DNA from: an uncultured Actinomycetota bacterium
Lineage (GTDB): Bacteria > Auribacterota > Ancaeobacteria > Ancaeobacterales > CAZGMX01
Assembly (NCBI GenBank): GCA_964526865.1
Contig: CAZGMX010000001.1
Span: 1 to 39,326, forward strand
Length of the DNA stretch: 39,326 nt
Direction: 5' to 3'
This document shows, one piece after another, positions 18,501 through 39,326 of this stretch. Position 1 is the first letter of the stretch. Each line of letters opens with the position of its first letter. Under the pieces are notes generated by a model. That model did not search any database and was not told the DNA's origin. It saw only the letters and a list, made by a program, of their open reading frames with translations. The position numbers and the translations under genes are program-made.

Positions 18501-21500
18501 AGTTTTGTACAGCCCCCCCTCTTTGACGGTCAGTCGCTGCGTTGGTTGGAGATGGATGGGAAGGGAGTCAAAGTCATTGAAGCGCGAGAGCTCAATGTCG
18601 TTGTTGGGAAAGACAAGGCCGGGATCGACATCGTGGAGCAGAAAACAAAAGTTGTCACGCGGTCCATCGACGAATTGACGGGGGATTTTTCAAAGGGCAA
18701 GGTGACGACAAGGATATTGGACAGCCAAGGAAAAAATTTCTTGCGGGCTGTTACGGATGTGAGATCTCAAGAGGTGAAAGAAGTTGAGATAGAGGGTGTG
18801 GTGAAGGAGGTCGTTTGGGATGCGGACGCGGCCGAATACAGGATGGTGATGGATATTGAAAACAGTCCCACCCTCAGGGGAGAGCGGGATGGACAGAGGG
18901 TCATGGACCGGACGTATCATGTTGATGGAAAAGGGAATTTCGAATTTTATGAGGAAACGTCGCAACGAATTGACCGCACGGAGAGTGAGAGGCAGGGCAA
19001 GGATGTTTGGGTGGAAAGCAAGACAACGCATGATTTCATGGGGAATGAAATCGACACCGTTTCCAAACAAAACATGGACCGGGTGAGAAATGCGTTTGAC
19101 GGCAATGACAAGGCCGGAATTCCACTGGCGGATGCGTCAGCGAGGATGGAGCGGTCAGCGCTCAAAAAAGAATTTGATGCGGAGGTTGGGAAGTTGAGAG
19201 AGGAAGGATCCGGTTCGTCGCTGAGCCGTCTGGTGGATATCTTTAAGCAGGTTGTGGGCATCAAGGCGGGCAATCTTTCCATGGCGGAGAGGGCGGCCTT
19301 TGGAAAGTTTCTGATGGAAAGGACGATAGAAAGGGACGGTTCCGGCATTAAAACCTTGATGGATGAAGCCCTGAAAGGGGAGGTCGGCAAACGGGACTTC
19401 AATATGATAGAGCAGGTGTCAGAGGCGTTGGGATTGCCTGATGTTGTCAGGGCCTTTGCGGAGGCATCTCGGTCAACGGACAAATCCCGTGCCCCACCGT
19501 ATCCAAAAAATCCTATGACCGGCAAGGAGATCAAGACGGTCGCGGACCTGGAGTCATTCCTGAGAGACAACTTTGTGGCGTATGCGCAGGTGTTCTTTGA
19601 AAAAGTCGGAAAGAAATCAGACGGAGGCTCGGTGAGTTGGACAACCAAACAGGTCAGCTTGCTTCAAAGAATCCTCCTGGGCGAAACAGGTCTCCTGGGC
19701 ACAGGCGGTGGCAAGACGGGGGTCAACATCATGGCCGCTGGGATCATGAGCGAACTGGGCAGGCTGATGGAGGCAGAAAATCTGGAGACCGCCGACGGCA
19801 AAATACGGCGGCAATATGCCGCGATCCTCATGACGGAAAATCCCGCTTCTTCGAACAGATACGTTGAAGACGACATGGGCGTCAAGTTGACCCATCAGGA
19901 ACTTGCCAGTGCGTTCGGGATCAAGCTGGTGAACGGGTCCAAGTTGGGACTGAAAAACCAGTTGGATGACCTGGCGGCGGCACTCGAGTCGCGAAACACC
20001 GTGGTCGTGATCGATCCCACCCAGGCCGGCTTCTTGAACCTTTCCCGCCGGGAGAACTCGCGGCTGGCCAACGCGTTGGACAAGACCACCCATTTGATCA
20101 TCGATGAAATCGACTTATTGGCAAAATCCACCCAGCAATATATCCGCAGTGCCAACAAACCGGGAGAGCGGGAGAATCAGGCAGAGGTTGCAAACTATTT
20201 GGAGTTGGGCGAGACAATTGAAACAAAATTCAAGAGGGTGGAATCCGAGGACGTGAATGCAGTCTATAACAGGAACGAGGCCAAGATAAAAGAATACGAT
20301 GAGGCCCTGGCCAAAGGGGAAATCGTTGAAAACGGCGTGAAGAAGGCCTTTGGGGCACAGGAATACAGACAGGCGCTGGAAGACCTGGGTGTCCTGGTGT
20401 ATGCAAAACAGAGCGGAGACCAGGGGGTCAGCGGTTTTACCAATAAGGCGGCGGAGAAATATTTTGCGACGTTCAAAAAGGGAGATGGCGCAAGATTTGA
20501 AAAATCGGACATCGAGCAGGCCCTCAGGGCTCAGGTGCAGGAATACGGCACCAATTATACGCTGGAGGCGCACCGTCTCCGACCCGTGGAAGGCAGCGTG
20601 ACAGAGACGCAGTACAGCGACCTGTGTTTTGCCGTGAATCTGGCAAGGAGGGGAAATGCCGAACTGGAAAAGGCAAAAGGAGGGGTCGATTCACAACTAT
20701 ACAAAGACAATTTCCTGAATCCAAAAGATTATGTTGCCAACAAGACCAACACCCAGGCCTCCTTCATCGAGTTCTGGCAAAACATCAGCAGTGCCAATCC
20801 GAGTGTTGATGGAAAGGAAGCCCAAGGCCTGCAGGTCAGCGGCACGACAGGAACAGGCGGCCAATTCCTCAACGTGATCAAGGATACCTTTGGAACGCCC
20901 ATTGCCCTCATCGAGGAGTCCACATTCGACAGGAGCCGCCTGACTGACGAGAACGGCAATGAAAGGATACGAGACGAGAGCGATGATGTGGTCACAGAAG
21001 TGCGGGCATTGGCACGCCGGAATGTTGGAGACAAGGACACCAATGCCACGGTCCTCGTGAAGGTGAAAGATGTGAAGAGCGGCTTGCCGCTCGTGAGCAG
21101 GGCGGGGCATGAGTCGTACCGGTGCCGGAGCGAAAGGGACTCTCGGGGGCAGTTCAATGTGTTCAATGACCGGGACACGATGAACGAGTCCATCAAAGTG
21201 AGACAGGAAATGGACGGAAGCCTGACAGTTGTCCGCGTTGGGGAGATGAGCAATCCAGCGCGGGCGAGTATGGAATCGGCAAGGGATGCTTATACCCGGG
21301 CGCAAAACGAGTACTATGAAAAAATGGACGAGGCATCCAGGAGCGCCATGAACGAGGCCAAGGCAAAGTACGACCGGGCGGATTCGGAATATCAACGGGC
21401 CCTTGCCGCGGAAGATGCCCTCATCCGGAATAATCAGGCGCGGGAAGTCCTGCTGGAAGACGGCACACCAAACGGCACGACGGCCTTCATGACGCTGGAC

Positions 21501-24500
21501 AAGTCCAACAATGTGTTGAGTTTGAGAGATGCTTCCGGCAAGGAGATCATGCGGTCCGGCAAGTATCTTTCTGAGATGGGGCTCACGGTAGCCAAGAACG
21601 GTCAGATCAAGATGGGAGAGACCACCCTGGGGACCGCGAAGCGATCCAACCGCATCCTTGTGGTTGATGAGTTGACGCCGGCGGAATTCATCAACCTGGC
21701 GGCCAACTATGGCGGGCAGAATAAAGACATTCTGATGACGTACAACCGCAACACGCTGACGGGAGTGGATTACCGCGGTGAATTTGACCAGTTTGTTTTT
21801 GGAATCGAACAATTGGATGAGAACCTCGCCAACCAGACGATGGGCCGCGTGGGGCGGGAAGGCGCCCTTGCCAACCGGTTCCTCTTTGTGGTCGAATCGG
21901 AAATGCAGAAGTCTCTGGGCCTCATCGGACAGAAAGAAAGACTCCAGGGACTTCAGTCCGTGTGGGAGGCAGGGCGGGACAGAGAGAATTCGGAATTTGC
22001 CCAGCAGTTTAGGGAGGGCAAGATCGAACGTCAAAAGCATCAAGAATCGGTGGAAAACAACCGGTATCAGGAGAATCTGGATCTTTTGGCAAAGTTCGAT
22101 GAAACCACGGCAACCGGTTTTGATAAATTGACCAGTTTGGAGAAAATGATGCTGGTGGGAAAATACCGCGCGGCATGTCAGGCGGCCGCGACGGAACTGT
22201 TCAAGGTGTCGGACACGGCGAGGTCCAAGGAAGTGTTGAAGCCATTGAAAGACTTGATGGACACCTTCAAGGTGAACGGCGCTGACACGGCGGCCAGCAG
22301 ACTGCTGGAGAGTGTTTTTGAGAAACACCTGAGCCGGCGGCCCACCAATGCCGACATCACGCGCAGCGAAGACGATCTGATAAGCGGCAAACAGAGGGTT
22401 GCCGAGTCGCTCTTGCGGGCACTGGGGGAAGCGGATACAGCGGCGCAAGAAGTATTGAAGGCGCTGCAGGAGGGCACCGCCAATGTGGAAGCGGCGGACG
22501 CGGCCCGGCTCAAAACAGAGATCGAGAAGGGGATCGAGGGACGCAAGGCCATTCGGGAACAAATTCAAAGCGATATCGACAACAACTTTGCCGGTGTCAG
22601 TGAAAGATTGGCGGGCAAAAAGCTGGCGGATTCACTCAGCAGTGCGAAAGACACGCAGGCAATCTATGATTTTGCGATGAGCAAGATTGCTCCTCACATC
22701 GTGCCGGAGATGCGCAGTGAGGCCATGCGATCTGAAAATGAAGTTTTGGCCAGGCAGCTGGCGCAAGAGACCCAGACTGCCAGGGCGCCTCCGGCTCCCA
22801 AGACAGTGGAGGAATTCCGCGCAAAACTCACCGAGAGTCAAGCCGGCAGGGAGGGAATGCCCGCCCTGCCCGGCTACACCGACGCCCAAGTCAACGCAAT
22901 GGTCACAGCCAGCAACTTAAATGCCGCGGGAACCCAGGAGGAAAAAGAAAGGCGCCTGGCCAGTGCCTGGAGCATGCTTCAGGGGGGTTATGCGGGTGCC
23001 TTGCAGACGCATTTGGTGTCGCTGTCCGGCGCCATGATCCCACAGGGAGCCACCCAGCAGGAGATCAACACCCAAATATTCGTGGGGTTGATGAACCGGG
23101 GCATTCTGGACACCGCCGCCGCGCAGAATGTGTCTTTGCAGCAGATTGGTTCTATTGCCTACATTCAGGCCCAGCTGCAAAGTTCGATCCCTGATGTGTC
23201 CGTGGCACTGACCGCGCAGGATTGGAACGACATTCGCAATTTGGGGGAAGGTTCTCTGGTCAATTATGTTGCCCGGGCGACGCAGGTCATATTGGGAAAA
23301 ATAATCACGGCACAGCGCAGTGATTTGAGTGCCGATGAAAGGACGAACATTGAAGCGCACGTGGTGGCGCCCTTCGTGCGGGTGCTTCAGCAATACCGGG
23401 ACCGGATTGCCAATAAGGAGCTTGGAAAACTGCCCACCGTCGCGGAAATATTTGGCGTCGCCAGAGACTTTGTCCAGGAACTGAAAAAGCAGGGAAGGCA
23501 GATGGATGAGCAACAGACCGAAGCAATGGAAGATGTGTTTGTAGACGCGTTGATGGCCAATGTGGACGGCATCGGATTTGGCCAGGACAAAGTGGAGGCC
23601 CTGCGCGTCATGGATCGCACGGTTCAGAGTGTGAAACCGGGCAGTATCCTGAAGGCCGAAACGGCGATCAATATATTGAAAGAAAGGGATCCCATCAAAC
23701 GCAACGACATGATCCGGACCATGCTTGTTGCCGCGGCAAACGAGGACCCGGAAGGTGCCTTCCGGTTTGATGTCATGAGCCGTTTGAGGCGCAGTGCGGA
23801 AAGTGGAACGGTGCTCTCGGCACAGGCGATCCAGAAAGTGATTCAGGATGTCCGCACAAAATACAACATCATGAGCGATGAAGTGGCGTACCGTTGTCTC
23901 AGAGAGGATATTGCGGGCCTCTTGCAGGGGCTGGGGCAGGGGAACCGCGAGAGAATGTTGGACGCAAAGCTCAAGGGCATGTTCGGAAGTGTGAAGCTGG
24001 GTGAGGAGGTTCCCCAGGCAAAGCAGAAAGCGGCCATGGCTCTCCTGCCCAGGTTTATGGAAATCATGACAAGCTTGAGTCCGAGCGTCCAACTCAAGGA
24101 ATTGATGAAGGCTGCCGTGGAAATAAACAAGGGCATTAGCAATCCAGAAGAGCAGTTGGATACCGGGCCGGAAGCCTTGCAGCAGCTTGCCAACGCCCTG
24201 CAGAAGGGTGTGGCTCCCATCGCCGTCCAATACATTGTGATTCAGCGTCTGAGGAATTTGACTGCGGAGAACCTGGATCTGAGCGATATCACCTTGGACG
24301 GCATTGTGGCGGATGCCAATGGCTTTGCTCAGGATGAAAAACAACTGCAGTCCCGCGCAAAGGTGCTGGAGTTGGCCGGCGGAATCCTGTTTGAAAAGGC
24401 GATGGAGCAGAACAAGCTGTATCAGGCGGAGCAGGCAGTCGAAATAAAGATCGGTAAAATCGTGGAAGCGACAGTGCCGGAGGCACAGCGCTCGGGTGTT

Positions 24501-27500
24501 CTCAAGATCATGGAGAACATGGTGTATCCAGCTTCGCTCGAGCCCTTGGGGCCGGATAATGTGATGGATATGATGCTAGAGGCCAACAACAGAATCACCA
24601 ATCCATCCGATCAGATGAGCGCGGAGACGTTCAACGCCCTGGATCCTGTTGCGATGCTGCATCTTGTCCGGCTGCAGCAGATACGGTTGCAGATGCGGGA
24701 GGCGATGAGCACGGGGCAATTTGCGCCGGCAGAGTTGGCGCAGGGAGACCGCGTGACATTGGACGACATCACAAGGTGGATGGATACGGTCAATGCAGGG
24801 GAGTATGGGGGAAGGGTTACAATCGATGAGGTGCTCGATACGGTGGTCAGGCCGATGATTCTATCTACGAGTACTGCGCAGACGGCGCGTCTTGAGGCAT
24901 CGCGCAAGAACTTGAGTTTTGAAGTACATTGGCGATCGACGTTGAATGAGGTTCGGCTGGCGCCGGTGAAACAGGCCGCAGCTCAAAAAGCGGCCGCCAG
25001 GCTGTTTGAACTTGCCAAGGACGGGAAAAACATCGCGCAACTGGATGCGGCACAGTGGACGGATGTGCTTACCAGCGCCAACAAAGATGTCAAAGAAGAG
25101 GGCGCAAAGATCACGCTGGAAGAGATCAAGAATTTTGTGCACATCCCCGTCGTAACGTTGAGCCGGCGGGAGCAAGCGGTGAAACTCTTCAACGAGCAGG
25201 TCACGCAGGATCCGGCCAGAGCGTTGTCGATCGATTTCCTGAGCGAAGTTGTCCGCACGGTGAATGGGATAACCGCCGAAGCCCAGTTGGTGGATGCGAT
25301 AAGCGGGATCGTTTTTGATGTGCCCTCACAGAAGAGCCCGCTTGCGCAGAAAGCCGCGCAGATGGTTGCGCAGCAGGGATTGCCCGCCGTGCGCATGATG
25401 ATAGCGGAAGATGCCAGGACGGGAATCGGCCAATTCCTGGCCAAGGTGAACGAGGGGGTTACGGACGGCGCAGAGCAATTGACCTATGACGAATTTGTCT
25501 TGCGCGTGTTTGCGCCCATACAAGAAAAACTGGCCTATGAATTGACAGCCAGCGATCTGTTTGCGGATGTGGTGCAGCCGGCAGGCGCCGGTCAAACGGT
25601 GCCGGGCGTCGATGTTCCATCGGCATTGCAGGATGTTTTGTCGCGGTTGCGGGACAATGAGGGATTGGAAAGAGTGATCGGGTTGTCGGACACTCTGGAT
25701 TCAGTCTGGACTGCGGAGGACAAAAATGAATCCTGCCGGTGGGATCAATTGCAGACCATGGCAGGGCAACTGGATTTGCCGGGGCTTGCAGGATTGACTC
25801 CCGAGGAGGAAGCGTCGTTGACGCCTCAACAGAAGACACAGAAGCAGGCCGACATGCAATTGGAGACGATGCTTCGGATGTTGTTCCCGTCGCATGACGT
25901 GATAGCGGGTGCTGAAATTGCACAGACGGTGGATGCCAATCCTACTCTGCGGCAGATTATTGAAGCGATGGACATCGCCAAGACACTCCGCTCGCAGAGA
26001 GAGGTGGGCCAATCTCCAACGCTGGCGCAGTTGGTTGACATGAGCAAACGGCTGGGGTTGGACAGCGATACGATCAGCACGACAGAGCGGCTCGGAAGGC
26101 TTTCCTTATTCTTAGACAAAGTAGGCGTTACCGTTGCCGCAGAAGACCTGTCATTTTTGGATATCATGTCACGGGCATTGCCCGAGGGCGCGCGGGGCAA
26201 TGTCCAATGGCAACGGCTTGTGGACCTTTATCATGGCCGAGGGATAGACGATACGACGGCAAATTATATGCAGTATGTGATGAGTGCCCTCGTCCTGCCG
26301 GGTCAGGCGCCCAGTGCGGTGCGTGAAGCGGCAGAATTGCAACAGGCTCTTTCCAATGTTGCCAACAACCGGGCGGGGGGCAGTTTTGAGACATTGGATA
26401 GGATTTCCGGGCGGCAGGTGGAAAGAGCGGCGGCCACGGATGAAGAAAATGCCGCCAGCCGCCGCGCGTTCATGCAGATCGTCGGAGTGAACATGGAGGC
26501 CTTGGATCAGGTGGAAGCCCTGGGGAAAGTGGATGCAGATATGGCCAGCCGCCTGGAGCAAATCAAGACAACCTCCTATAAATCTTTTGATGAACTGGTG
26601 CGGTGTTTTAATCGGGAATTAATGGTGATTCTTGCCCAGCCGGAGGCGTTGTGTCAGGACACTGAGCGACTTTTGATTGCTTCGGGGAAGATGCGCAGTA
26701 GTGCGACAGTTGGGCTTGATCAAAGCGCTACTGTGCGCAGACTGGATATAGAAAAACTGTTGAACAATTTTGGAATGCGGCTGACGCAGAGAGAAGGGGG
26801 CGCGCAGGTGCTGTTAGATGAGATTGCCAACGCGCAGAGTGCAGATCAGGCCCAGCGGTTGGCGAGTGCGTTTGGGAATGAGGGCTTGGAAGACTTAAAC
26901 AGCCAGTTGGCAGACCAGATCAAACAGTTTAACACGGTCAATCAGGCGTCATTGGAGCAGATCTCCCGATGGGAAGACACGCTGAGACAGCAAGAAGCCG
27001 ATTTGGCGGCCGTAGAGGGCAGACAAACCCGAGAGATTGCGACACTTCTGGGTGAAGATCTTCAAACAATAGAGCGCAGGGCACAATTGGAGACCGCGAG
27101 GGGCAAAACAGGGGACGCATTATCAAGAGTGCGGGCTGAACTGGCCAGTCTGTCAACGGCACGTGCCGACGTGATTGCCGCCATGGCGGCCAGGCAGCAG
27201 GAATTGGAGGCATTCAGAGACGGACTGCTGACGGGATTGGGAGATCGCGCAACCGCAATTCAAGCAATGGTCAAGATTGCATTGGAAAATCGCCTGAAAG
27301 ATTTGGAATTGCTGGGCAGGGCGTGTGAAGCGGACCTTGTCAAAGTGACGGGCGTGGCGCAGAAATTTGCGCCGCCGGTGGTGATGGATGCGGCGCTTGC
27401 AGATGTAAAGAGTCAACACCGGCTGGGAGACAAGCCCGAGGTTTTGGCGCAGGCTGTTGCGGCGGCCAGGACCAAGGCGGAGGTGGAAGACGCAGTATCG

Positions 27501-30500
27501 AAAGCTCTGATCGGCACGGAAGAAGAAAACAAGGCGCTGGAGGAATTGGACACGCGCGGCAGTCAAAAGCTTGCTGAAGTGGCAGGCGCGTACGGTCAAA
27601 AGATACAGGAACTTCGTGCCAAGGTGGATCAGGCGCAGGGTGTTTTAGATGCCGGCGTGAGAAATGCGACAGACCGTGAGCGGCTCCAGAAAGTTGTGGA
27701 TCAGGCCAACGCCGCGCTGAAGACTCTAGAAGATGGGTTGGCCAAGGCCATGGCGGATGTGAAAACAAATACAGCAAGCGCGAGGGAAGCGCTCGTGCGG
27801 GCGATCCGCGAAAAGAATCTGGCGATAGAGCAGGCACGGTTGGAACGCCTGACACAGTTGGGAGTGGTCCTGGCGGCTGTGGATCAAGCCCGGGTAGCGA
27901 TGGTGCAGGCAGCGTTGGCTATGGATCGGATGGGAGATTATCCCAAGGCGGCCCAAAGCTTTGATGCGGCATTGAGCGAAGAGGTCTCGAAACCTGTGCA
28001 AGAAAAACTCGACGCCATCGGCAAGGCGCAGATGGAAGACATGAACAAGCTTCGCGATGAAGCGCTCATCAGTGCCGAGGCGAGGGACGTATTAGTACAA
28101 AGGCATCAGGCAAAGATCGATGCTGCAGCGATCAGTCTGGAAGAAGAATATCAAAAGGCCGACACGGACCTGGCACAGAGGCAGGCGGCGCTGGAGGCAC
28201 TGCCTGTGGCAGATCAGGACAGCGATCTACTGGGGAAAGTGATTCAAGCGCGGGCGGATTTGAGGACTGCTTATGACGCTCAAGTGGCTGCCCTGGATCA
28301 GCGGGCCACAGAAGGTATTGCTGCAATTAAGAAAGCGATAGATGAAAGAAACGCGAAAGTGACAGAGGCGTTGAACAAGCGGTATGAAGCGTTGGCCGAT
28401 ATAACGTTCAAGGCCACAGAAGATCCTATGGGTATTCGTAAATCGCTGATTCGATTGGAGACGCTGGCCCATCAGATAGAGTTGGAGATTGCCTCGCAGA
28501 CTGCCAATCGCCAGCTTTCACCCAACGCCAAGGCCCGGCTGGCGGAGTTGGAGGCCTTGTATCAGTATGAAAGGGAAGCACTTCTTTCTCGAGCGCAGGA
28601 AGAAAAGAAGACATGGGGATTGAAGGATGAAGCGGAGCTCAAGAATGAGTATGAGCCAAAGATTGCGGCGGCTGAAGCAAAAATATCCAATGCCAAAGAC
28701 GCATTGGCCCGGACCATCGATCCTGAGCAGCGCAAGAAGCTGGAAAAGACTCTATCGGAAGCGCAGGCGGAACAGAAAAACCTGACAGAACAATATGAAA
28801 AAGCGAAATCGCAGACTGCTGCCGCGGTGCTAAAGGAGCTGGAAGCGCAGCTACCCGATGTAGAGCGCAACGCGCAGATCGCGCAGTATTTGGGCACCCA
28901 TAACGGCAAGAGCAAGGAAGAATGGCAGGCGGAAAAGACCAATCTGGAATACAGGATACAAATGCTGCGTATCTTGTCATCGGAAAATGTGGCTTCGGGC
29001 TTGGAGACGCAGTTCAATGCAACGCGCGATCGAGTCAAAGCCCAGCAGAGAGAAAACATTCTGGCCTTCCTCAAAGGGGAGTTTGATCTGAAGCTGCCAT
29101 TTGCCGGGGTCAGTAGTGGGGCACAGATAGTTAATGTGGAATACGAAGGGGGAATTGAGGCGGAGGTGGAACTTGCAAATGCCGTTGCTCTCAATCAGGC
29201 CGTAGATGCCATCTATGGCCTGCCGGATTCTGCCATCGGCCGAATGGAACCTGTGGTCAGCCTGAGAGAAGACGGCACACCGGCGGACGCAGAGAACAGC
29301 CGGATTGCGGTGATGTTGAAAAACGGCCAATACGCCCAGGCGGAGAGTGCGTATCAGGCGCTCTTGGCACAGGCGCCGTTTGATCCAACGGATCGGGCCA
29401 GTGTGGAAAGAACGCTCAACTACGCCATGGCGCTGGCCAATCAAGGGAAGTATGAACAGGCCGCTGATGCGGTTAAAAATCTGGAACTATGTTCCCGTGC
29501 GGTTCTTGACAAGCTGGGCGGCAAAGACCTTCAAATTCGCAAACTCATTGATCTGCTTTCCGGCACCGAGAAGTTGGCACAGCAGCCAAACATTCCGCCG
29601 ACAGAGCAAGTAACCAATTTATACAACTATGCGCTGGCATTGGCGAGGACGGGCAATTTGCAACTGGCAGCCCAGGTTGCCAGGAAGGCCTGTGGGATTG
29701 CCTATCTTGTTGAAAAGCCCACAGACGAAGATGTGTTGGCGTTTAGAAGGATAAGCCTGTTGTATTCGCTGGTCTTGGCGGCCTTGCCGCATGACCAGAC
29801 AGCGATACGCAACAGAAGCGATGAGCCCGGCGGTTATGGGCGCCGCATAGAGACGCTTCGCCGGGACAATGAAATTGAAACGAGAACGTATAATGCCATT
29901 GTTGGGATGGTGATGGGTGTGGTGAAGAATTTGGCTGGAGAAGTGATCTATTCTTACCAGGAGAATGCCAATGGTATTCGGTATGTTCAAAAGCCAAATA
30001 CGGATTTAGAGGAAGTCTGGGATGTGCAAGGCGCGGTCGCGGGCACATTAAAACACAGTGATCTACCCGATTTGGCGGAAGTGGAAGACGTGCAGGGCAA
30101 CGTGGGCGATGGATATATTGCATTTAGGCTTGGCACTGGGACGCGATTGATCAACGCCCAAACAGGTCAGAATGTCTTGCTTGATACAAAAGAAAGACTG
30201 TCCAACGTCAAAGTGATTGCCCTGGGCAATGGCCGGTTTGCGCTCTACGCCCAGAACCAGTCCGGTGACGGTTTCTTGCGGCAGTTCAGTGCGGATGACA
30301 CGGCGATTTCGGATACGGGAATGTTTATGGCCCGGTCGTTGGCCGGCGGCAAATTCAAGGTTTTTGAGATGATAATTGAGGGCGAATGGCAGACGGTGGT
30401 GGTGGGAGAAAAGGAAGGCGAATTTATCACACTGCCCAACACGCGGCTAGGGGATGTTTCGGCAATGCGCGATGGTGTAGCTCTTGTTGTCTGTCGCGAA

Positions 30501-33500
30501 AACGGGACGCTGGAGATACGGGATCCGCACACCGGATGGATTTTGGCGACGCTAAAAGATGTGGCCGCCGCCCAGATCGTGCGGGTTGTCAGCGAGACCA
30601 AGGATGAGAAGCAGACCGCGCAGATCACATTCAGGACGGCGACAGGGCAGGTGACGCAGACATTTGTTGCCCAGGAAAAGGTGCGGGAGATAAAAGTTGA
30701 GGATATTGGGACAGCAGCCGGCTGGGGCGATTGGATCAAGCAGTTGTTTGGATCTGGCGCGGAGGTGCCGCTCTTGCGCTTCAGCGACACGGATGTAACA
30801 AGCGGCAAGAGCGTTCAAAAAGTGGTGCCAATGCCGGCGGGCGTGAATTTGAGCATTCCTGTCCAGATGCAGGCAGACGAAAAGACGGGAGCCGTGACAA
30901 TCACACTGCAGACCATGGATGGCACGGCGGATATTTCCTGGGGCGGGGAGTTGAAAGAAACGGTCAAGGTCGTGATCAAGGAAGGGCAGAAGGTCACAGA
31001 AGAGATTTGGGAGGCGTCTGACAGGCTGAAGGAACGGACCGTAACGGACACCAAGACGGGCGATGTCACAAAGACCGTGTGGGAAGGAAACAAGAATGTC
31101 CGGACCGAGACGGTAGGCAAAAGAACAATCACCACTACGGCAACTTATGATTCCGCGACGGACCAATGGACAACCGAGGAGGAAGACAAAGCCCTGGGAC
31201 TGAAGCTCACCAAGACAAAGAATGCCCAGCACGAAGTACAAAAGGTGGTGCTGGAAGACGCCAAAGGCAACAAGGTGGAGGTGTCACCGGAAGCACTGCC
31301 GGAAGATATGGACGGGATTGTGGGAGCAAATCTGGAGCTTGGCAGTGGGATGTTTGCACTGGATATGTTGGATGATACAGGAGTGGTTCACACGCGCCTG
31401 TTTGCCCTGGGCAAATGGGCGCCGATGGCAGGGGTGAGCGCCAGCCAGATCAGGCCGTTTGGCGGCGGGCAATTGTTGTATCCCAGGGTCAAAGACAACA
31501 AACCCATCTGGATTGTAGCCGCGATAAAGGTGGATTCCCAGACCAAGAAACTTGTGCTGGAAGAACGCGAATATAGCGCATTCCAGGACAGCGGGTCTGT
31601 CACGGCGTTTGAAGGGACGCGCAAGGAGAAGAATCAAGCCGGCATCGAAGTGGATGTGCCATTCGTCCAGTTCCTGAACCGTGATACGGGCCAGACATCG
31701 GTTGTCTTTGGGGCGGAATTAAAGGATGTGCAGTCGTTGGGCGAAGGTGTCCTGCGGGTGGAGCGCACACTGGATGGCAGGCAGGATGTCGTTGTCCTGG
31801 ACAGCGCCACTGGAGCGGTCTTGCAGACAGTTGAGGCTGGGCAGGCGCTTTGGGATTCTGCCCGCCGCGTGAAGACAACTGACGGCAAGAGCGCGGTGGA
31901 GCTGGTCAAGAAAGACACGGCAGGGATGGGGATGGAGATTTCGCAATACCAAGATGGTGTATTGGCGGGTAGTGCCGAGGTCTCATTAACAGCCGGTGTG
32001 GTCAGTATAAAAGCTAACATCCAGGGGAAAGCGACGGTAAGAACAGTCGCGCTCAGCGATGGTGCCCCAATACAGGCACTGCAGTCCATTGACGATATCA
32101 CGTTGGATACGAAGAGTGGCAAGGTTGTTACGCGTGCAAAAGACGTTGATGGAAAAGATGTGTTTATTTTGACATCGGATGCGCTGGGTCAGCAAGCAGA
32201 GGTTGGGCTGGGCAAGGTGCCTGAGGAGGCAACAGAAGTTTTTGTGTATGGCGAAGATGGCAAGTTGGTGGAGTCTAGAAGAGTGCTTGACGACGGCCTT
32301 GTTAAAGGATTCTTGTACCAAGACGGATTGGTGGTGGGCACATACATTGGCGACACTAAAGCTGGTCTCCGGATGATTATCCATTGTGATCCCTATGCAG
32401 AACCGCCAGCCGTGTTAATGGACATCAAAGATATGCGCAGTGGTGCGGTTGTGACCGATGTTCCAAGAGGGATTATAGGAGATATGGCAAACCTGAAAAC
32501 GCTAACGCCGGATATCGGTGGTGGTGTAATTCTTTTGCAGGGGCTGGATAAAGAAGGCAGACCTGTGACGGCCTTTTACAATCCAAATAATCCATCTGCC
32601 GGTGTTCGGCAAGTAAAGGGTGTCACCGAATTCTCCACGCAGTCTATCAATAAAGGCGTCGTGTTCTACCAGGTGCATGTGGGAGACACGGCTCAATTAC
32701 AGACCGTAGCACTGGATATCGCAACAAATAGCAAGGCGTACTTCTCGGATGTACAACCCGCAAGGATATCTGCTTTGGGAGACGGTGCATTTGCGTACGA
32801 GAAGGATTTAGAAGGCAAAATTCAGACTTTTATTTCTACAGCGGATGGTCAAGTGCGCCGGATTGCCGGAGAAGAACGTGTTTTAGCCTCTAGTATTTTA
32901 ATGAAAGACGGCCGTTATTATGGCCTGATGCGCAATGCGCAGGGCAATCTGCAAACTATTTGGTTAAATCCAGCGACAGACAGAACAACCCAGGAATCGG
33001 TATTAGAACCCTTGGTTATACCTGCGACGGAGCTGGGCAGGTTGTTTACGACCTTTAATTTTAACCCCAATCTGTTGGGCTACACAGAAAACAGGAAGAC
33101 CTTTGTCATGGACAGCGTGACGGGACAGGTGGTGGACATCAGCACTGCCCTGGCGCAAATGGGTTGCACGCTGAAAGATATCGTGGATGTCAGGATCGAT
33201 CTGTCGGGCGCGGCATGGATTGCGGGACAAGACCGCGAAATAAGAAGTGACGCCGAAGGGAATGTGACACTGGATGTGCCCAGACATCACGAGATCAGTC
33301 AGGACGCTCAAGGCAAAGTGACAATGGAAGTGACCAGATATATGGAAGGCGGTGTTGAAGTCAGTGTGATAAACGATTTGGCAAACAACATCACAAAGAC
33401 GATTCGCAAGGCAGCCGACGGGACCTCGACAGTGGTTGAAGAAGCAAAAATGGCAGATGGAATAACGCCAAAGTACACCAAGACATCAAAACTCGATGCC

Positions 33501-36500
33501 AAGGGCCAGGTGTTGGAGTCAATCACGACAGACGTGGCGACAGGCCAGGTCACACAGGAATGGCCGGTGGAAAAGAAGACCCTGATCACACTGGTAGATT
33601 CGCAAGGGAATTTGCATCAAACGGTTATTACGCCCAAGTCGAAGGTGACAGAGGTATATGAAGGCAACATTGCAGACGAGAGCAAGATACTTTCAAAAGA
33701 GATCGAAGAAAACGGCCAAATCACAACGATCACGATGAAGGCCGGCGGGATCCAGGACGCCGTCGTGACAGACCTACAGAAAAAGCCGATCAAGACATAT
33801 CAAGAGAATGCGGCCGGAATCCGCGTGACGCGCAATGCCGGAAGCGCGGTGGTGGATGTGGAAGACACCAAAACAGGAGCCATACAAAAGGGCATCTTCG
33901 CGGAGTTGGTTCCCGGCATCGCCCAGATTTACGGGGTAGGAAGAGATTTGGGGACGCGCTATGTCGGACTGGAAGTGCGAGATGCGGCAGGCAAAGTCAC
34001 GACGTTATTGATCGACCGGATCAGCGGATCGCAGTTGGAACTCAAGGATGAGGACAATAAGAATATAGGCATAGACAGTGTCGCGCGACTGACCGACCGG
34101 TATTGGCTCATTGGCGTGCGGGATACGCAAGGCGCTGCGCATCTGAAGATCTACGACATCACAGTGAAGCCGCCGGCAAAGCCGGTGATGGAATTGGCCA
34201 GCGGCGATGCCAACACAAGCACGCCTATGGATAAGGAAGGGAATATCCTGGGATATCAGATTTTAGGCGATAACGGTCTGGTGGCGGGAGTGGCGCTGAT
34301 CCACACCCAGACGGGCGCGGTGAGGATGATACCGAACACATCGTTGAGGAACGTCTCTCTGTCTGAGGATGACAAGATGATCTTCGTGGAGAGAGGCCAG
34401 AGTGCCACGGGAGTGGAGTTGGAGGTCTGGGACTTTGCCGCAGGAAAAGTCCTGGACACAGTGGATGCGCCACAAGGCCAGAGGAACATTGTTGCCAATG
34501 CCGACGGCACGCTGGACGTGATCATGCCCTACGGCCTGGCCCGGTTTAAGGACGGGGAAAAGATCGCCTCTGTCACGATCGACAACAAGGCGAAGAAATT
34601 GACGGTGACCTTTGGCCAAGACAGTCCCAAAGTGGTGCCGGTAGATCAAATCGTTCCCGAAGGCTATACGCTGACGGTTGATCCGGCCAAGAAAGAAGCC
34701 ACTCTGAGTTATACCACAGGGGAAGGCGCCGCGGCCCAGAGAGTGGATATCATCACCGAAAAGGACCAGGTTCGCACGATCACAGAGGGTGCCGAAGGGA
34801 CAGCAGAAAAGATTCACACACCGGTGCAGATCTCGATCACCAAAAAGGATGCCAACGGCGTGCTGCTGGAAGAAAGCCTTGAGTCGGCGGCAGGGTTGGA
34901 AGAGAAGCGCTATCAGGCAGGCCAGCTGGTGTTCATGTTAAAGATCGATGCAAAAACGGCGCAGAAGACCGAGGAGACATTCAGTGCGTCCCTGCATGTG
35001 ACAACGCAGTTCGATACCGAAGGAAATGTGATATCCGAAACGACAGAAAATCTCGACACGAAGATCGCGGTAAAGAAGGTCTTTAAGGACGAAGAACTGG
35101 TCAGTGAGACGACGGAATATCAGCTCAAAAATATTGCCGTGACCACGACGCCGGATTCATCGAGGGCAGTGGTTCGCAACACCAAGACCGGGGAAGAGTT
35201 TGAGGCGTTGAAGTCCGCTGTAACTGACTTTACAAATATTCAATTTAACGTCGTGCCCGGCTGGCATGCCATCGAATATGTCAAAGCGGCCGGGACAAGC
35301 GAAGTCATGATGTTAGATCCTGCCACCGGAAAAACAGTGACACTGCCCGCGAAACTGGATCAGGTTCAGGCCTTTGGCCGGGAAGCGATTTTGGTCAGCG
35401 GTCTGGAAGAAAACGGGGAACCAACATTTGCCGTCTATCGGAAAGACGGCCAATATTGGCGGGTGGGATCTTTTGCTCCGCAAGAACTCGGCAAGGAATA
35501 CAGCTTGTGGCGTTTCACAGACAGTGAGGCGCCGGTTGATACGCCACCGATGAGGGTGGTGTTCAACAGGGCCAATGGCGCGGCGGCGATTCTGCCGCAG
35601 GAGGGATTTGATAGTGCGTCGGTCAACGCCGAGGGCTTTGTTGTGGCCGTGCAGAAGGTGGGAGCGCAGGCGATAGAGACGACCTATGACGCGGACTTGA
35701 AACCCATCAAGCGGGTGACAGCCGGGCCGGACAAGACCGTGGTGGAAGATCTCACAGCCAACACGATCGAGACGACCCAGAAGAACAGCGATGGAACGGT
35801 GACGATCATTAGGGAAGAGAAATTCGCGGATGGCGCGTCCATTATTGAAACGATCAAGGGCACAGGGAAGACGACAACGATCAAGAACATCGCCGGCCAA
35901 ATAAGGACGATTGTCTATGAGCAGGAGGGAACACCCTACAAGGTAGAGATCTCAGTGCAGGCCGGCAAGGCCTCGATCGTGGATCCCGCAAACATGAGCG
36001 GCGCATTGGAAGTAACGCCGCAGACAGCGCAGGCGATCATCGACAAGGGACTCAAGATAGAGGGGATTAGTGCTATTGCCGAGGGTGTGTACATTCTGAC
36101 CGCGCTCAATCCCGCGGGAGTCCGGCAAAATTATGTATTGAGCGACGGCCAAAAGACGCTGACCAATCCCATCGCGGGGGAATTGAAAAATATTCAACCC
36201 ATATCCGGCAAGGAATTGTATTTGGGATTTGTCCAGGCAACGGCGGACAAGCCATCCCAGGTAGTGGTTTTTGACAACAAAGGCAATGTCACGGTAGTGG
36301 GTGAAGGCCTGGAACTGAAGGATGTCAAGCCGCTGGCCGAAGGCTCGCCCCTGTTTGCAACCGGGATAAAAGACGAGAAAGGCACTGTCACGGGGACACG
36401 GATATTGGATATCACCAATCCGGCCAAGCCCGTCCCGATCGTGATGGAAGGAGTAACTCCAGAGGAGTTGTCGGGGGCCGTCAAGATCGATGTGGGCAAG

Positions 36501-39326
36501 GTGGATCCCAAAACCAAAGAAGGTTTTGTGTATGTGGAAGGAAAGACTGCGGCGGGTTCCTACGTGGATATCTTTGACAACAAAGAAGGCGTCAAAGTCG
36601 CGTCGTTCAACGGGGTGACTCGCAGCCAGATCATCAGCTACAAGGAAGAAATCAACGAGGCAGGGCAGTTTGTGCAGGATGTTCAGATCAAGGTGGGGAC
36701 CACGACGATCACGACCCGTTATGTGGATCATCAGGAAGTGATGAGGGAAGAGAAAACCGCCACCACGACCACGCGATATCTCCAAAGCGGTGTCAAAGCG
36801 GTATTGGAGGCAGGAAAGATCACGGTGTTGGACAAAGACGGTGCCAAACTCATGGAAGGCATCAAAGGGGCGATGGACGACGTGACGGTGCAGGTCTTGG
36901 TGGCCGAAAATATTCTGGAGGTAAAGATTGCCAATGCCGGCGGGACCTACATCAAGAGAGTGGACCTTGCAAGCGGCACAACAACCGAGATCAGGGATGT
37001 GGGGGGAGTCAAGACGCAGATCGAAACCAATGCGGACGGCAGCACTGTCGAAACGGTTACAGATGCCAAGGGCACGGTAGAAATTTGCAAAGACAGCAAA
37101 GGAGAGATGACCCAAAAGACCACGACCAGTTCGGATGGACGAAAAGTGGTGGCGGAGGAATATGAACAAAAAGTTCTGACGACGACGACCACGACCTACC
37201 GCGATGAGGATAAAAATATATTGAGGACGGAAGTGACGACACATGGCGGCAAGACGACGACAGTGGAGTTTACCGAAGGGCCGGTTGCATCCAGAAAGAC
37301 AGAGACACAGCCCGACGGCAGTGTGATCGTGACGGAGACATCACGCGCCGGCGTAGAAACGAAGACCACCAAAGATGTGACCGGCCGGGTGGTGGCGGAA
37401 GTAATCACAGATTCCAAGGCCGGCATGATGACAAGCAGAACGTTTGAACCCTCCGGCGTGTGGACAGAAACGATTACAGATATATCGGATATAAATAATC
37501 AAAAAGTGACATCCAGGAGCCAGACAAATCCGCAGACGGGCATCCGTGATTTGACAAAGTACGCTGACGATTTGCCGCAGGAAGGTGTCAGGACAATAGA
37601 GGACTTAAAGACTGGTCTGGTTCTGCCTTTGAACAGTTCTGTGAATTTGGCCGATACCGGAACGATCACGGCGATCGCGGCGCCGGCGGAAGGAATCGTG
37701 GCCCTTCAATATATCAAAGACACCAGGACAGGCACTGTCTTGATCAATGCCCGAGGCCAGCAAGTGACATTGGAGAATGTGCGTGCGCAGGACATCCATC
37801 AGGACATCTTGCGGGAAGGCACAGTTGAAACGCCAATACTTGTCTTTAGCAAGAAGGTGATGGAAGGCACCGAGGAGAAGTGGAAGCTCTTCCAGGTGCC
37901 AATAAATGATTTGAGCAAATCGCCCGAAGAATTTGTCACAGCGACATTGCCGCCGGCAGAGCAGAACTTGTGGGTCTTAGATCCCGGGACAGGCGAATTG
38001 GTCAAGCTGTGGCCGGACTTATTGGCGCTGATAGATGTCGTGGGCGCAAAGAATCTGGGCAATGGGAAGGCGGCAGTGGTAATCAAGGTGGGCGAATCAG
38101 AAACCGGCGTAGTGATAGTCGATGTGGAAAAAGAAACGATATTAACCCCCGCACAAAATATTGCCTTGGCGGATATCCGCGCAGTCAAAGAGATCGGTGG
38201 AAGCGTCTATGTGGAAATGACAATCAACGGCATGAATCGTGTAGAGGAATACACCAACGCGACAAAGACGGCGCAATACGATGGTCTGACGAGTGCCGAG
38301 CTGGTGGACTTCCAGCCGATGCAAAACGGTACAGTCGCGCACGTCATTCGCAGTGGTAGAGAGATGACGATCGCGTTTGACCCGGATGGCCGGCAATTGG
38401 TGACGCTGGCAGGAACACAGACAGACATAGAAGGCGTAAAGAAGGCCGGCAATTACGTTGTAGTGGGCAGGGTTGGGCAGGCGGCACAACTGGAGGTGGA
38501 AGGTCCTCAGGGGACAACGATATTAAAGGGCTTTGACGGCACATGGTCAGAGATCGAGCAGATCACGGCCCAAGGCGCATTGATGCTTGTCCAGCGGGGG
38601 ACAGGGCTCACGGCTGTGACGAGTATATTTGATGAGGCTGGAAACAAGTGCTTTGAGACGATGGGAGAGGCAAAAGACATTGCAGGCATCAGCCGCGGGG
38701 TCTCTGATGCGGACAAGAAGGCCCAGACGGGAGAATTCCTGATCCAGAGAGGTACAAAGGAAGATGCGCAGACAGAGATCAGAGACAAAGACGGCAAGAT
38801 GATTCTCAGCGTTCAGGGCGAAGCGGCGTCGCTGGTATCCATGAACACCGCCCCAGGTAACATTATCGTGACGCGAAAGGTGGATGGCGCGGTAACTCAA
38901 GAAGTCTATGACACGCAAGTGCGAAGCGGCCAGGAATACGAAGAGGGCGGCCAGGCCGTAGGCAGATATCTGACGTTGAAGCCGGGCGAGGCGATAGACG
39001 CGCAAGAAAAGGCAAGACTGGAGCGGCTTGCACAGGCGGGCACGATAACGCAGGAGGCGAAACTGGCGCTATTGCTTTCAACGGACGCGGACGGCAATCC
39101 CATCCTGGATGCGGCCTCGGCACAGAAGGCCATCCAGGATCTGTCAACCGATACGGCAAAGGCGTATCTGGAGTCCCGCGGCTTGACTGCGCTCTTGGAA
39201 CAGGCCAAGACAGGGGTCGAGGCGCCCAAGAAGGCAAAAGAGGTGCTGGCCCAGTTGACCAAATTGGAAGGGGAACTGGAAGCGGTAAAAGGTGCGCCCA
39301 GCACCCTGGCCGGTGCATTAGACGCC
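1..39326 (+). CDS. Internal fragment of a single giant multidomain protein gene, open at both ends. Reading frame +3: first full codon 3-5, last codon 39324-39326, 13,108 codons in the window.
   Basis: Manual codon-by-codon translation of frame 3 across the whole window met no stop codon. The product reads as coherent protein throughout: repeat units, ordered SecA-type ATPase motifs, coiled-coil and TPR-like helices. No + ORF in the supplied track is in this frame; all listed starts are 1 or 2 mod 3. That is the expected result if frame 3 has no stop to delimit an ORF. All long - ORFs are in the exact antisense-codon frame. The window opens on the last two bases of a Tyr codon (..at of tat) that closes a preceding repeat unit. 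It ends inside a coiled-coil segment, so neither start nor stop is present. Confidence 0.94.
3528..3632 (+). repeat. Decayed 22nd repeat unit marking the C-terminal end of the array.
   Basis: TGNKKTKCITNGSTDGEAFASVELFDENPKGPSFY keeps the G-x-KKT...G-S-T-x-G-E-x-F skeleton of the units. It loses the YD..G.NV / SHQE half. Confidence 0.7.
3633..9830 (+). other. Domain-level region of the giant CDS: Tyr/Trp/Gly/Asp/Thr-rich, apparently beta-rich sequence with scattered degenerate YD-like hairpin motifs. No named family recognised.
   Basis: Example peptides: ETFYDTTGSRSKIGRT, TLYKTDARGERVRDT, TFYEKAEGRLQS, EYTFGKSDKDKVYTQKTEYVFGYPD, YSEGYRIRDIVDSATGGYDP, TYGASGVPQQGRQIEFDGENNRAYESYYQGGKKVLQTNYYTG. 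Aromatic content is high, and there are no long hydrophobic or heptad stretches. Confidence 0.45.
9830..11880 (+). other. Domain-level region: predominantly alpha-helical, with coiled-coil-like segments.
   Basis: AGYRAELEKLEQLRANQLTETEAIVERLDDYRDDIVDLFDD (10080-10200). LARRLGELQDRKQKATELKGELEDLSTELNAKKLAMAMNLERAY (about 10623-10755). The composition is Leu/Glu/Lys/Gln/Asp-rich, in contrast to the flanking beta-type sequence. Confidence 0.5.
11883..11972 (+). other. Candidate membrane helix / glycine-zipper hairpin 1.
   Basis: 30 consecutive uncharged residues, AAFSAGPLSTVWSGVWSGIGAAWNWGTGLI. They are flanked by EADQ on the N side and DKK on the C side. Confidence 0.4.
12051..12134 (+). other. 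Candidate transmembrane helix 2.
   Basis: 28 uncharged residues, GAAQLVASGLCSLAGAVVALVGNFISGG. They are preceded by RFLK and followed by HTWWDNPLTK. Confidence 0.45.
12378..12425 (+). other. Candidate short hydrophobic helix 3.
   Basis: IAFWSGAGLVITAMLA, 16 uncharged residues between E and RD. This is short for a full bilayer span. Confidence 0.3.
17040..18700 (+). other. Domain-level region: beta-solenoid-like sequence with short alternating polar / hydrophobic strands and frequent G / N / D turns.
   Basis: Example peptides: GKLSVVTDNLGRGLGVFEGKVRFVDVGANGRD; GVLRLKTAEGFVNIDTANGNTVRVEGGKIKVSMDSLVDEVEIKTGSLDVS; SIRVLSGVEGRAVLENGQIKVENARLKTDTVVDIRL; GGVEVGRGVVGKEGVIVRADKTG. Pattern recognition only. 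Confidence 0.3.
19698..19718 (+). other. Walker A / helicase motif I (GTGGGKT).
   Basis: Context is LLGETGLLGTGGGKTGVNIMAA, which matches GxxxxGK[ST]. Compare SecA ..TGEGKTL. Confidence 0.85.
20091..20120 (+). other. Walker B / DExD motif II (HLIIDEIDLL).
   Basis: A hydrophobic strand followed by D-E-I-D. Compare SecA VDEVDSILIDEA. Confidence 0.8.
20751..20858 (+). other. SecA-like pre-motif III plus motif III (TQASFIEFWQNI ... VSGTTGTG).
   Basis: Compare SecA QTLASITFQNYFR ... LAGMTGTA. It is followed by FGTPIALIEESTFDRSRLTD, compare VVVIPTNRP..R.D. Confidence 0.65.
21738..21899 (+). other. Helicase motifs V and VI, SecA flavour (TYNRNTLTGVDYRG ... NQTMGRVGREG ... RFLFVVES).
   Basis: Compare SecA TIATNMAGRGTDI.LG and IDNQLRGRSGRQGD.GSSRFYLS.ED. 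The N-Q, G-R-x-G-R-x-G, R-F and E positions all align. Confidence 0.75.
22900..26800 (+). other. Domain-level region: about 1,300 aa of Ala/Leu/Gln/Glu/Arg-rich, apparently all-alpha sequence with no family I can name.
   Basis: Example peptides: EERRLASAWSMLQGGYAGALQTHLVSLSGAMIPQGATQQEINTQIFVGLMNRGILDTAAAQ; MLHLVRLQQIRLQMREAMSTGQFAPAELAQGD; PTLRQIIEAMDIAKTLRSQREVGQSPTLAQLVDMSKRLGLD. There are no beta-type Thr / Tyr-rich patterns. Confidence 0.35.
26815..29085 (+). other. Long coiled-coil segment of about 750 aa.
   Basis: Continuous Ala/Glu/Gln/Leu/Lys/Arg-rich sequence with almost no Pro / Gly clusters or aromatics. Examples: LEQISRWEDTLRQQEADLAAVEGRQTREIATLLGEDLQTIERRAQLETARG; KIQELRAKVDQAQGVLDAGVRNATDRERLQKVVDQANAALKTLEDGLAKAMADV; RKKLEKTLSEAQAEQKNLTEQYEKAKSQTAAAVLKELEAQL. 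Confidence 0.7.
29301..29717 (+). other. TPR-like helical repeats, about 3-4 helix pairs.
   Basis: RIAVMLKNGQYAQAESAYQALLAQAPFDPTDRASVERTLNYAMALANQGKYEQAADAVKNLELC ... VTNLYNYALALARTGNLQLAAQVARKACGIAYLVEK. The spacing is the classic a-x-x-G-x-Y-x-x-A ... A-L pattern. Confidence 0.55.
30000..38900 (+). other. Domain-level region: about 2,900 aa of beta-rich sequence with recurring blade-like units. Each unit pairs a hydrophobic strand of type [IV]-x-A-[ILM]-x-x-G-x-[FYV]-A-[LV] with a [DN]-x-x-T-G turn. Possibly serial beta-propeller / PQQ-like blades.
   Basis: [DN]-x-x-[TA]-G-x-[hydrophobic] starts at codons 30153, 30522, 31047, 31677, 31800, 33111, 33531, 33864, 34431, 35178, 35316, 37719 and 37980, plus H-T-Q-T-G at 34302. 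Examples: IRDPHTGWILATL, VLDSATGAVLQTV, VMDSVTGQVVDI, MLDPATGKTVTL, VLDPGTGELVKLW. Strand motifs: VIALGNGRFALYAQN (30213), VSAMRDGVALVVCREN (30456), ISALGDGAFAYEKD (32766), ISAIAEGVYILTALN (36066), ITAIAAPAEGIVALQY (37665). Confidence 0.45.
36693..37490 (+). other. Second Thr-rich YD-like hairpin patch, non-tandem at the DNA level.
   Basis: VGTTTITTRYVDHQEVMREEKTATTTTRYLQSG ... TEIRDVGGVKTQIETNADGSTVETVTDAKGTVEICKDSKGEMTQKTTTSSDGRKVVAEEYEQKVLTTTTTTYRDEDKNILRTEVTTHGGKTTTVEFTEGPVASRKTETQPDGSVIVTETSRAGVETKTTKDVTGRVVAEVITDSKAGMMTSRTFEPSGVWTETITD. Confidence 0.45.

Follow-up and report, generated by a model that had tools for sequence, protein, structure and literature searches.

The question raised by this locus is what is built by 3,000 residues that carry a recurrent turn motif and have no detectable relative outside their own genome, an extreme case among giant bacterial proteins, which are mostly unannotatable. 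The window (the whole stretch of DNA that was analysed, 39,326 nucleotides (nt) long) is positions 1 to 39,326 of contig CAZGMX010000001.1 in assembly GCA_964526865.1, a metagenome-assembled genome (MAG) of an uncultured bacterium placed in the phylum Auribacterota. It is a single stop-free frame (nt 3-39326, 13,108 codons), and the region of interest lies near the end of this frame. An earlier reading of the sequence (the original prediction) had taken recurrences of a [DN]-x-x-[TA]-G turn and of a second motif to mark several propeller-type or sandwich-type binding domains in series, some of them like the blades of PQQ or BamB proteins. We find that the region is best explained, with moderate confidence, as a rigid scaffold built from beta-hairpins, with clusters of blade-like units as platforms.

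The turn motif and internal repetition

All 13 codon starts listed in the original prediction are in frame, and each reads [DN]-x-x-[TA]-G; a further seven sites (amino acids (aa) 10292, 10784, 10863, 12055, 12470, 12509 and 12534) had been overlooked. The resulting 20 occurrences of the core motif in aa 10,000-12,965 compare with 5.2 +/- 2.2 in full shuffles (P < 2e-4), and shuffling inside 100-aa blocks gives a mean of 5.15 with a maximum of 15 among 4,000 shuffles, so that the proposed enrichment holds under permutation. The expectation of two to three occurrences given earlier agrees with the variant extended by a hydrophobic residue (1.6-2.0 expected) but not with the bare core, for which 5.2 are expected. 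The hydrophobic residue that was said to follow the Gly is mostly found at Gly+2 (G-x-hydrophobic, 13 vs 1.6 expected), and directly after the Gly in only six cases (vs 1.6). The second motif fared less well in its strict form, [IV]-x-A-[ILM]-x-x-G-x-[FYV]-A-[LV], which matches once; its loose core, [IV]-x-A-[ILM]-x-x-G, is found four times against 0.6 expected (P = 0.003).

The turn motif is largely confined to this part of the protein. Of its 39 copies in the whole protein, 20 fall in aa 10,001-13,000 (about 4 per 500 aa vs 0.9 expected), whereas the other 10,000 residues carry it at background frequency, with zero copies in aa 9,001-10,000. More generally, Asp or Asn followed by Gly is enriched at spacings of 1, 3 and 4 ([DN]G, 44 vs 27.4; [DN]xxG, 52 vs 27.4; [DN]xxxG, 40 vs 27.5) and depleted at spacings of 2, 5 and 6, as are pairs in the reverse order with Gly first. 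Because the enrichment is restricted to spacings compatible with turns, the motif belongs to a grammar of hairpin turns and does not identify one particular fold. [DN]xx[TA]G is a generic beta-hairpin turn, the five-residue, chignolin-like member of this wider set of turns. In chignolin (GYDPETGTWG), a designed hairpin, D-P-x-T-G was optimised into a stable pi-turn (PMC9054626), and the same five-residue GB1-type turn is seen in the giant protein in VLDPGTGELVKLW, MLDPATGKTV and IRDPHTGWIL. The comparison has its limits: chignolin is a designed 10-residue peptide, whereas in the giant some 20 such turns, alongside two other turn types, are spread over 3,000 residues of natural sequence.

The region is also repetitive at the protein level. 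Off-diagonal self-similarity is about nine times that of block-shuffled controls, with 46 high-scoring segment pairs of at least 25 bits against 5.0. The best self-pair joins aa 11097-11260 to aa 11896-12051 (42.7 bits) and a further one joins aa 9937-10043 to aa 11222-11325 (E = 3e-5); the long internal matches mainly link one Thr-rich stretch to another. The original prediction had described the modules as old and diverged, with nothing tandemly repeated at the DNA level, and the best protein self-pairs, at merely 27-37% identity, bear this out. Autocorrelation further reveals a hydrophobic period of 11 residues across the entire region (z = 4.7).

Relatives within the genome and the segments of the region

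Searches outside the genome were negative. A search of 5.8 billion proteins by word index (10,000-aa reference) returned nothing, and no relative was found in metagenome contigs (searched with the single protein and then with an alignment of its paralogs), in genome contigs, or, outside the giant's own genome, in 40 related genomes and then in a six-frame search of all 79 genomes of the phylum. Exhaustive HMMER comparison of aa 10,001-11,200 with 1.84 billion representative proteins gave a single match, to a Thr/Ser/Asn-rich Ig-repeat adhesin of Bacteroidota type, which aligned in 18 pieces at 25% identity and was rejected as compositional. The only relatives that we found are two open reading frames (ORFs) in the same MAG, each spanning a whole contig: C129 (2,745 aa) and C286 (1,000 aa).

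C129 is collinear with aa ~9,080-11,900 of the giant, in the order coiled coil, TPR-like stretch and beta region, and its aa 1121-1317 match aa 10,270-10,463 of the giant at 37% identity (phmmer, E = 2.6e-20). C286 is collinear with aa ~12,110-13,100, and both it and the giant end in a coiled coil. Together, C129 and C286 probably represent fragments of another giant gene with the same layout. In the pair of paralogous sequences that can be aligned (23% identity overall), conservation is highest for Gly (50%) and Asp (39%), and turn sites fall opposite each other (DSKAG/DSQ-G, NPQTG/NTNNG, DPGTG/IPGSG). The region is an orphan: a sequence variant, restricted to one genome and set in a giant protein, of building blocks (hairpin, ribbon and blade) that are themselves familiar.

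Two kinds of segment can be told apart by composition and succeed each other in six to seven rounds: one has up to 26% Thr, the other is poor in Thr but enriched in Gly and hydrophobic residues. It is in the second kind that a unit of about 43 aa is seen, 'l-x-[dn]-[iv]-x-a-l-x-[de]-G-x-hhh ... hhh-D-x-x-T-G-x-h'. An iterated, self-trained hidden Markov model (HMM) of this unit finds 29 copies at a threshold that gives about 0.5 in shuffled sequence; 14 of the giant's 15 fall in aa 10,021-12,960, and all 14 of those in C129 fall in its beta-rich part. In cross-validation, a model trained on the giant recovers eight C129 sites above every control. An earlier HMM, of a 58-column module, recovered its own seeds only and was discarded. 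The segments of the region, which is flanked by a helical, TPR-like stretch before it and by a C-terminal coiled coil after it, are as follows (window coordinates and strand; AF2 denotes AlphaFold2).

29970-38912, + strand: the whole all-beta, hairpin-built region (aa ~9,990-12,970); single open frame, motif confinement, excess self-similarity and 11-residue hydrophobic period.
30015-30677, + strand: blade-like cluster 1 (aa 10,005-10,225), Thr-poor and Gly-/hydrophobic-rich; unit-HMM matches at aa 10021-63, 10143-85 and 10181-223; turns at aa 10051 and 10174; second motif at nt 30213 and 30456.
30810-31412, + strand: Thr-rich hairpin stretch 1 (aa 10,270-10,470), Thr up to 26%; turns at aa 10292 and 10349; the segment best conserved with C129.
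31305-31877, + strand: blade-like cluster 2 (aa 10,435-10,625); turns at aa 10559 and 10600; unit-HMM match at aa 10570-10612, the top cross-validated match of the C129-trained model.
32535-33167, + strand: blade-like cluster 3 (aa 10,845-11,055); unit-HMM match at aa 11005-11049; weak collinear match to C129 aa 1558-1744; turns at aa 10863 and 11037; second motif at nt 32766.
33291-33887, + strand: Thr-rich hairpin ribbon 2 (aa 11,097-11,295); member of the best internal repeat pair; turn-residue period 12/23; turns at aa 11177 and 11288.
33900-34487, + strand: blade-like cluster 4 (aa 11,300-11,495), visible in the sequence itself as some four units of ~45 aa in tandem; unit-HMM matches at aa 11302-50 and 11442-89; turn at aa 11477.
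34578-35222, + strand: Thr-rich hairpin stretch 3 (aa 11,526-11,740), from the Thr profile; self-matches to aa 12212-12497; match to C286 aa 186-318; turn at aa 11726.
35214-35657, + strand: blade-like cluster 5 (aa 11,738-11,885); contains the giant's top-scoring unit (aa 11738-84, 28 bits); turn at aa 11772; seven strands in the single-sequence model (predicted local distance difference test score (pLDDT) 50-56).
35628-35990, + strand: Thr-rich hairpin ribbon 4 (aa 11,876-11,996), from the Thr profile; pairs with aa 11097-11186 (E = 1e-5).
36030-36512, + strand: blade-like cluster 6 (aa 12,010-12,170); seed module at aa 12014-68; all-beta in a model of low confidence; turn at aa 12055; second motif at nt 36066.
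36513-37532, + strand: Thr-rich hairpin ribbon 5 (aa 12,171-12,510), from AF2 and periods; 29 consecutive strands; turns at aa 12470 and 12509.
37662-38912, + strand: C-terminal blade array (aa 12,554-12,970), from AF2, lag-42 autocorrelation, collinearity with C286 and Foldseek; about eight four-strand groups; turns at aa 12573 and 12660; second motif at nt 37665.
38970-39326, + strand: start of a helical, coiled-coil-like tail (aa ~12,990-13,108), from sequence; it continues for ~1,823 codons beyond a 10-N gap, and C286 likewise passes from beta region to coiled coil.

Predicted architecture and competing explanations

Structure prediction was carried out on the C-terminal part. Single-sequence AlphaFold2 on aa 11,771-12,970 gave a mean pLDDT of 36.7 and was confident only at aa 12,293-12,374, a meander of eight strands in hairpins; a fold search with this model returned no significant match. 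With C286 added as a second row, the model of aa 12,171-12,975 reached a mean pLDDT of 58.1, with 62 strands (54% strand, 6% helix). In the ribbon, pLDDT is 73-87 for aa 12,171-12,380 and 54-78 up to aa 12,490; strands here (aa 12,171-12,510) are joined by loops of alternately 2 and 5 residues, and the 5-residue loops are DNKEG, DKDG, DLASG, NADG, DSKG, QPDG, DVTG and DSKAG. From aa 12,554 to 12,970 the four-strand groups recur every ~42 residues (pLDDT 50-67 in the centre). Independently of the model, autocorrelation of the sequence reveals periods of 11 (z = 5.4) and 22 (z = 3.4) for turn residues in the ribbon and of 42 (z = 3.2-3.9) for hydrophobic residues in the C-terminal array. Foldseek comparison of the paralog-based model with the PDB gave 305 matches at E <= 1e-3, headed without exception by beta-propeller proteins (lowest E, 3e-11): LRP2/LRP6, the WD40 tandems of IFT-A and the SSU-processome, the designed 8-blade Ika8, sortilin/SorCS2, tricorn and Aip1. 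A fold search against BFVD was no more informative, its matches again being of low TM and at the level of meanders.

These observations are consistent with the following architecture, which we consider probable. The region would form an all-beta C-terminal body made almost entirely of antiparallel beta-hairpins, with tight turns set by Asp or Asn and then Gly at a spacing of 1, 3 or 4 (D-G, D-x-x-G and D-x-x-[TA]-G). Thr-rich stretches (100-340 aa) would be long up-and-down hairpin ribbons with strands of ~7-8 residues and the 11/22-residue period, and Thr-poor stretches (150-420 aa) would be made of ~42-aa, four-strand units resembling the blades of beta-propellers. Within the unit, the first hairpin would come from 'l-x-[dn]-[iv]-x-a-l-x-[de]-G-x-hhh' and a subsequent one from 'hhh-D-x-x-T-G-x-h'. 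The longest array, with ~8 units, is probably a propeller or a propeller-like disc, whereas the shorter clusters, each with about four units, may be partial or may stay open. Internal duplication long ago would have produced the repeats, which then diverged so far that little besides the turn residues has been preserved. Such a body could serve as a rigid, extended scaffold whose blade-cluster platforms make contacts with proteins or glycans, attached by coiled coils to the rest of a membrane-anchored giant.

This reading needs to be weighed cautiously, as several results count against it. The tally of 29 units comes from an HMM trained on the units themselves; a model trained on C129 has no match in the giant that exceeds the top control (at a lower threshold it gives 7 matches vs 0.4 expected), and the core matched in cross-validation is mostly the hairpin alone. 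Comparisons between blade-like clusters by phmmer score no better than shuffled or reversed controls; because the clusters are unable to detect each other in this way, common ancestry of all units is unproven and the preference for the turn could be convergent. The blade part of the model is of low to moderate confidence (pLDDT 50-67, predicted TM-score 0.32), and its Foldseek matches have TM-scores of at most 0.26 and root-mean-square deviations above 20 A, despite the propeller identity of the top ones. Hydropathy finds one clear membrane helix in the giant, at aa 4017-4044, and no convincing one after it, hence none that sets the region apart from a candidate ATPase module upstream.

That the region is instead a series of genuine closed beta-propellers, belonging in very diverged form to the PQQ/BamB or PD40/TolB superfamily, seems unlikely to us. 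The likeness to such blades lies in the ~42-aa units of four antiparallel strands and in the propeller proteins among the Foldseek neighbours, and the C-terminal array combines the 42-residue period with four-strand groups. At the sequence level, BamB (LTALDLRSGQIMW) and TolB (LYVMDLASGQIRQV) of E. coli share with the giant's unit a hairpin of the form 'hydrophobic strand - D-x-x-[ST]-G - strand'. The unit profile scores aa 243-277 of E. coli BamB at 9.5 bits and aa 263-282 of TolB at 7.5 bits, with controls that peak at 4.3 bits (shuffled sequence, 158,000 residues) and 8.7 bits (ORFs of the same MAG, 2.27 million residues); hhalign gives scores of 21.9 for TolB (P = 0.0016, probability 16%, aa 254-285) and 15.6 for BamB, against 6-11 for ten control proteins. 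In each case, however, a single hairpin of ~32 residues is what aligns. The profile searches also speak against membership. In Pfam (three overlapping tiles covering aa 9,501-13,108) and NCBIfam, no propeller, YD/RHS or other beta-repeat family matches the region at E <= 1, which includes the PQQ families PF13360 (PQQ_2), PF01011 and PF13570, PD40/TolB (PF07676), WD40, YVTN and other propeller repeats; a sequence search of the PDB likewise gave no match at E <= 1, and a PHROGs scan returned nothing. The closest approach is a sub-threshold PQQ_2 score in C129 (13.5 bits vs a cut-off of 27.6).

Membership in the PQQ/BamB family, whose blades the original prediction saw in several of the turns, or in the WD40 and YVTN families is therefore not borne out, whereas the more general picture of repeated modules in that prediction is upheld in part. 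The region is all-beta and modular with hairpin turns in the style of blades, and repeated beta modules are predicted, including the ~8 four-strand groups of the C-terminal array; closure into a ring is unsupported by the TM-scores, and most other clusters have only about four units, lying between ribbons. The motif, moreover, marks no single blade family, since it occurs in two settings and ~8 of its 20 sites (about 40%) are inside Thr-rich hairpin ribbons that are not blades. On these predicted models, the structural evidence points to similarity at the level of blades or meanders and falls short of proof for closed propellers.

We regard as less likely still the explanation that there is no homologous repeat family at all, and that a fast-evolving, beta-rich sequence has converged on a preference for one type of hairpin turn. 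The failure of the blade-like clusters to recognise one another above controls, the little that cross-validated profiles recover past the hairpin, and the presence of one turn, stable and generic (PMC9054626), in two settings that differ in structure would all be expected of convergence. It is harder to reconcile with the long and significant internal matches (42.7 bits; E = 3e-5), with 46 segment pairs where five are expected, and with the regular 11/22- and 42-residue periods, which are most simply explained by duplication.

Ranking below both of these, and doubtful in our view, is a more specific version of the scaffold: a segmented rod in which single-layer Thr-rich ribbons alternate with open propeller fragments of ~4 blades and end in a full disc of ~8 blades, evolved de novo by internal duplication in one lineage and located on the ATPase side of the membrane. 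If true, this would be a previously unseen architecture and a giant intracellular beta-scaffold, not a surface adhesin. The ATPase in question is a SecA-like candidate at window positions 19503-22202, which is unconfirmed (best Pfam match AAA_22, E = 0.17; no PDB sequence match at E <= 1) and which, if real, would be detectable only by structure or deeper profiles. If it is real and cytoplasmic, the beta region would also be on the cytoplasmic side, which would argue against a role as a surface adhesin.

It is very improbable that the ribbons are diverged YD/RHS-type repeats forming a closed shell or cocoon like those of Rhs proteins, Tc toxin BC components and teneurins: for all the likeness in very large size, long hairpin runs, Asp-x-x-Gly turns and an 11/22-residue period near the ~21-22 residues of the YD hairpin, a YD-like 56-aa repeat array at the start of the giant protein and a teneurin at rank 49 among the Foldseek matches, the region gives no match to RHS_repeat (PF05593) or TIGR01643 at E <= 1, its D-x-x-G turns lack the preceding Tyr of the Y-D-x-x-G-R-L consensus, no RHS core or aspartyl-protease plug motif is seen, and its Thr-rich ribbons are short segments interleaved with blade-like clusters every 100-340 aa, unlike continuous YD shells of ~700 aa.

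Two further systems resemble the hairpin-built scaffold that we favour. Giant proteins of Omnitrophota, in which antiparallel beta-helix filaments were compared with Rhs repeats (West-Roberts et al. 2023, bioRxiv 10.1101/2023.11.21.568195), are likewise mostly unannotatable and reveal repeated antiparallel beta architectures when sub-regions are predicted. The alternation of ribbons and blades is absent from that paper's description, however, no sequence relative of the present region was found in any collection, and the present host belongs to a small phylum (79 species genomes) with an RpoB nearest to those of Verrucomicrobiota and Kiritimatiellaceae MAGs. The giant SecA-domain proteins of Omnitrophota are characterised by transmembrane segments and an embedded SecA DEAD-like/preprotein-binding module; in the present giant, the corresponding features would be the one clear helix at aa 4017-4044 and the unconfirmed ATPase candidate. 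The single-layer beta-sheet of Borrelia OspA, like the ribbons, is a flat meander of hairpins exposed to solvent, with much Thr, Lys and Glu, but it is limited to a few such strands. OspA entries recur among the weak fold matches of the single-sequence model, which lack significance (E > 0.04), the model itself being of low confidence.

The finding reveals no new mechanism, and the building style is familiar, not a new kind of system. Its interest is that turn spacing, the 11/22/42-residue periods and a single in-genome paralog sufficed for a coherent architecture, so that the hairpin-turn grammar may be usable for parsing other orphan, beta-rich giants. The analysis also delimits fragments for expression and structural work, namely aa 12,171-12,510 and aa 12,540-12,975.

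Flanking parts, gene and genome

Two weakly hydrophobic segments lie immediately before the beta region (window positions 29730-29954; aa 9910-9935 and 9964-9984, RRISLLYSLVLAALP and AIVGMVMGVVKNLAG). They would matter for the side of the membrane on which the region lies, but their shortness or charge prevents a confident call as membrane helices, and C129 does not conserve them. A little further upstream (window positions 29304-29477, aa ~9,768-9,825) is a sub-threshold TPR match (TPR_16, E = 7e-6, 26.8 bits vs a cut-off of 32.7), and C129 has a similar one at the equivalent place (aa ~650-690). Upstream of this is another repeat (window positions 27087-28886), in which aa 9029-9277 pair with aa 9379-9628 at 27% identity (E = 5e-6); there are extra self-match offsets of ~180-200 aa within aa ~9,029-9,628, and this repeat looks like a separate family, probably helical.

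The giant ORF is open on its 5' side, where its frame extends past the start of the contig. Directly after the window end (nt 39326) there is a 10-N scaffold gap, beyond which an open frame of 1,823 codons, helical or coiled-coil-like, continues in another frame (contig nt 39327-44874) and stops ~75 nt short of the contig end; a Pfam scan of this frame found no domain. As an open frame resumes after the gap, the stop that seems to close the window's frame at nt 39470 is probably an assembly artefact. The sequence would then imply a full gene of probably ~14,900 codons, the protein having at least 13,108 residues.

The giant ORF is on the first contig of a MAG with 408 contigs, 3.27 Mb, 54% GC and 87% completeness, which encodes dozens of ORFs of 1,500-13,000 codons each. 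The nearest named relatives of its RpoB are in an uncultured Verrucomicrobiota MAG (66%) and in Kiritimatiellaceae MAGs (60-61%). A full-length rpoB is found on contig C120 (1,814 bits) and a second, partial one on C386 (784 bits, model positions 670-1189); two copies in the bin suggest strain heterogeneity or contamination (contamination estimate 4.7%).

One other motif-rich ORF of this genome, on contig C62, was considered as a paralog and set aside, as its repeat is of an unrelated, 106-aa tandem type. This ORF (minus strand, 1,919 aa) has at least eight tandem copies of the well-conserved repeat, which includes 'W-A-G-D-P-Y-P-S ... N-V-V-Y-V-[AV]-D-K-K-T-G-E-L' and also employs a D-K-K-T-G turn.

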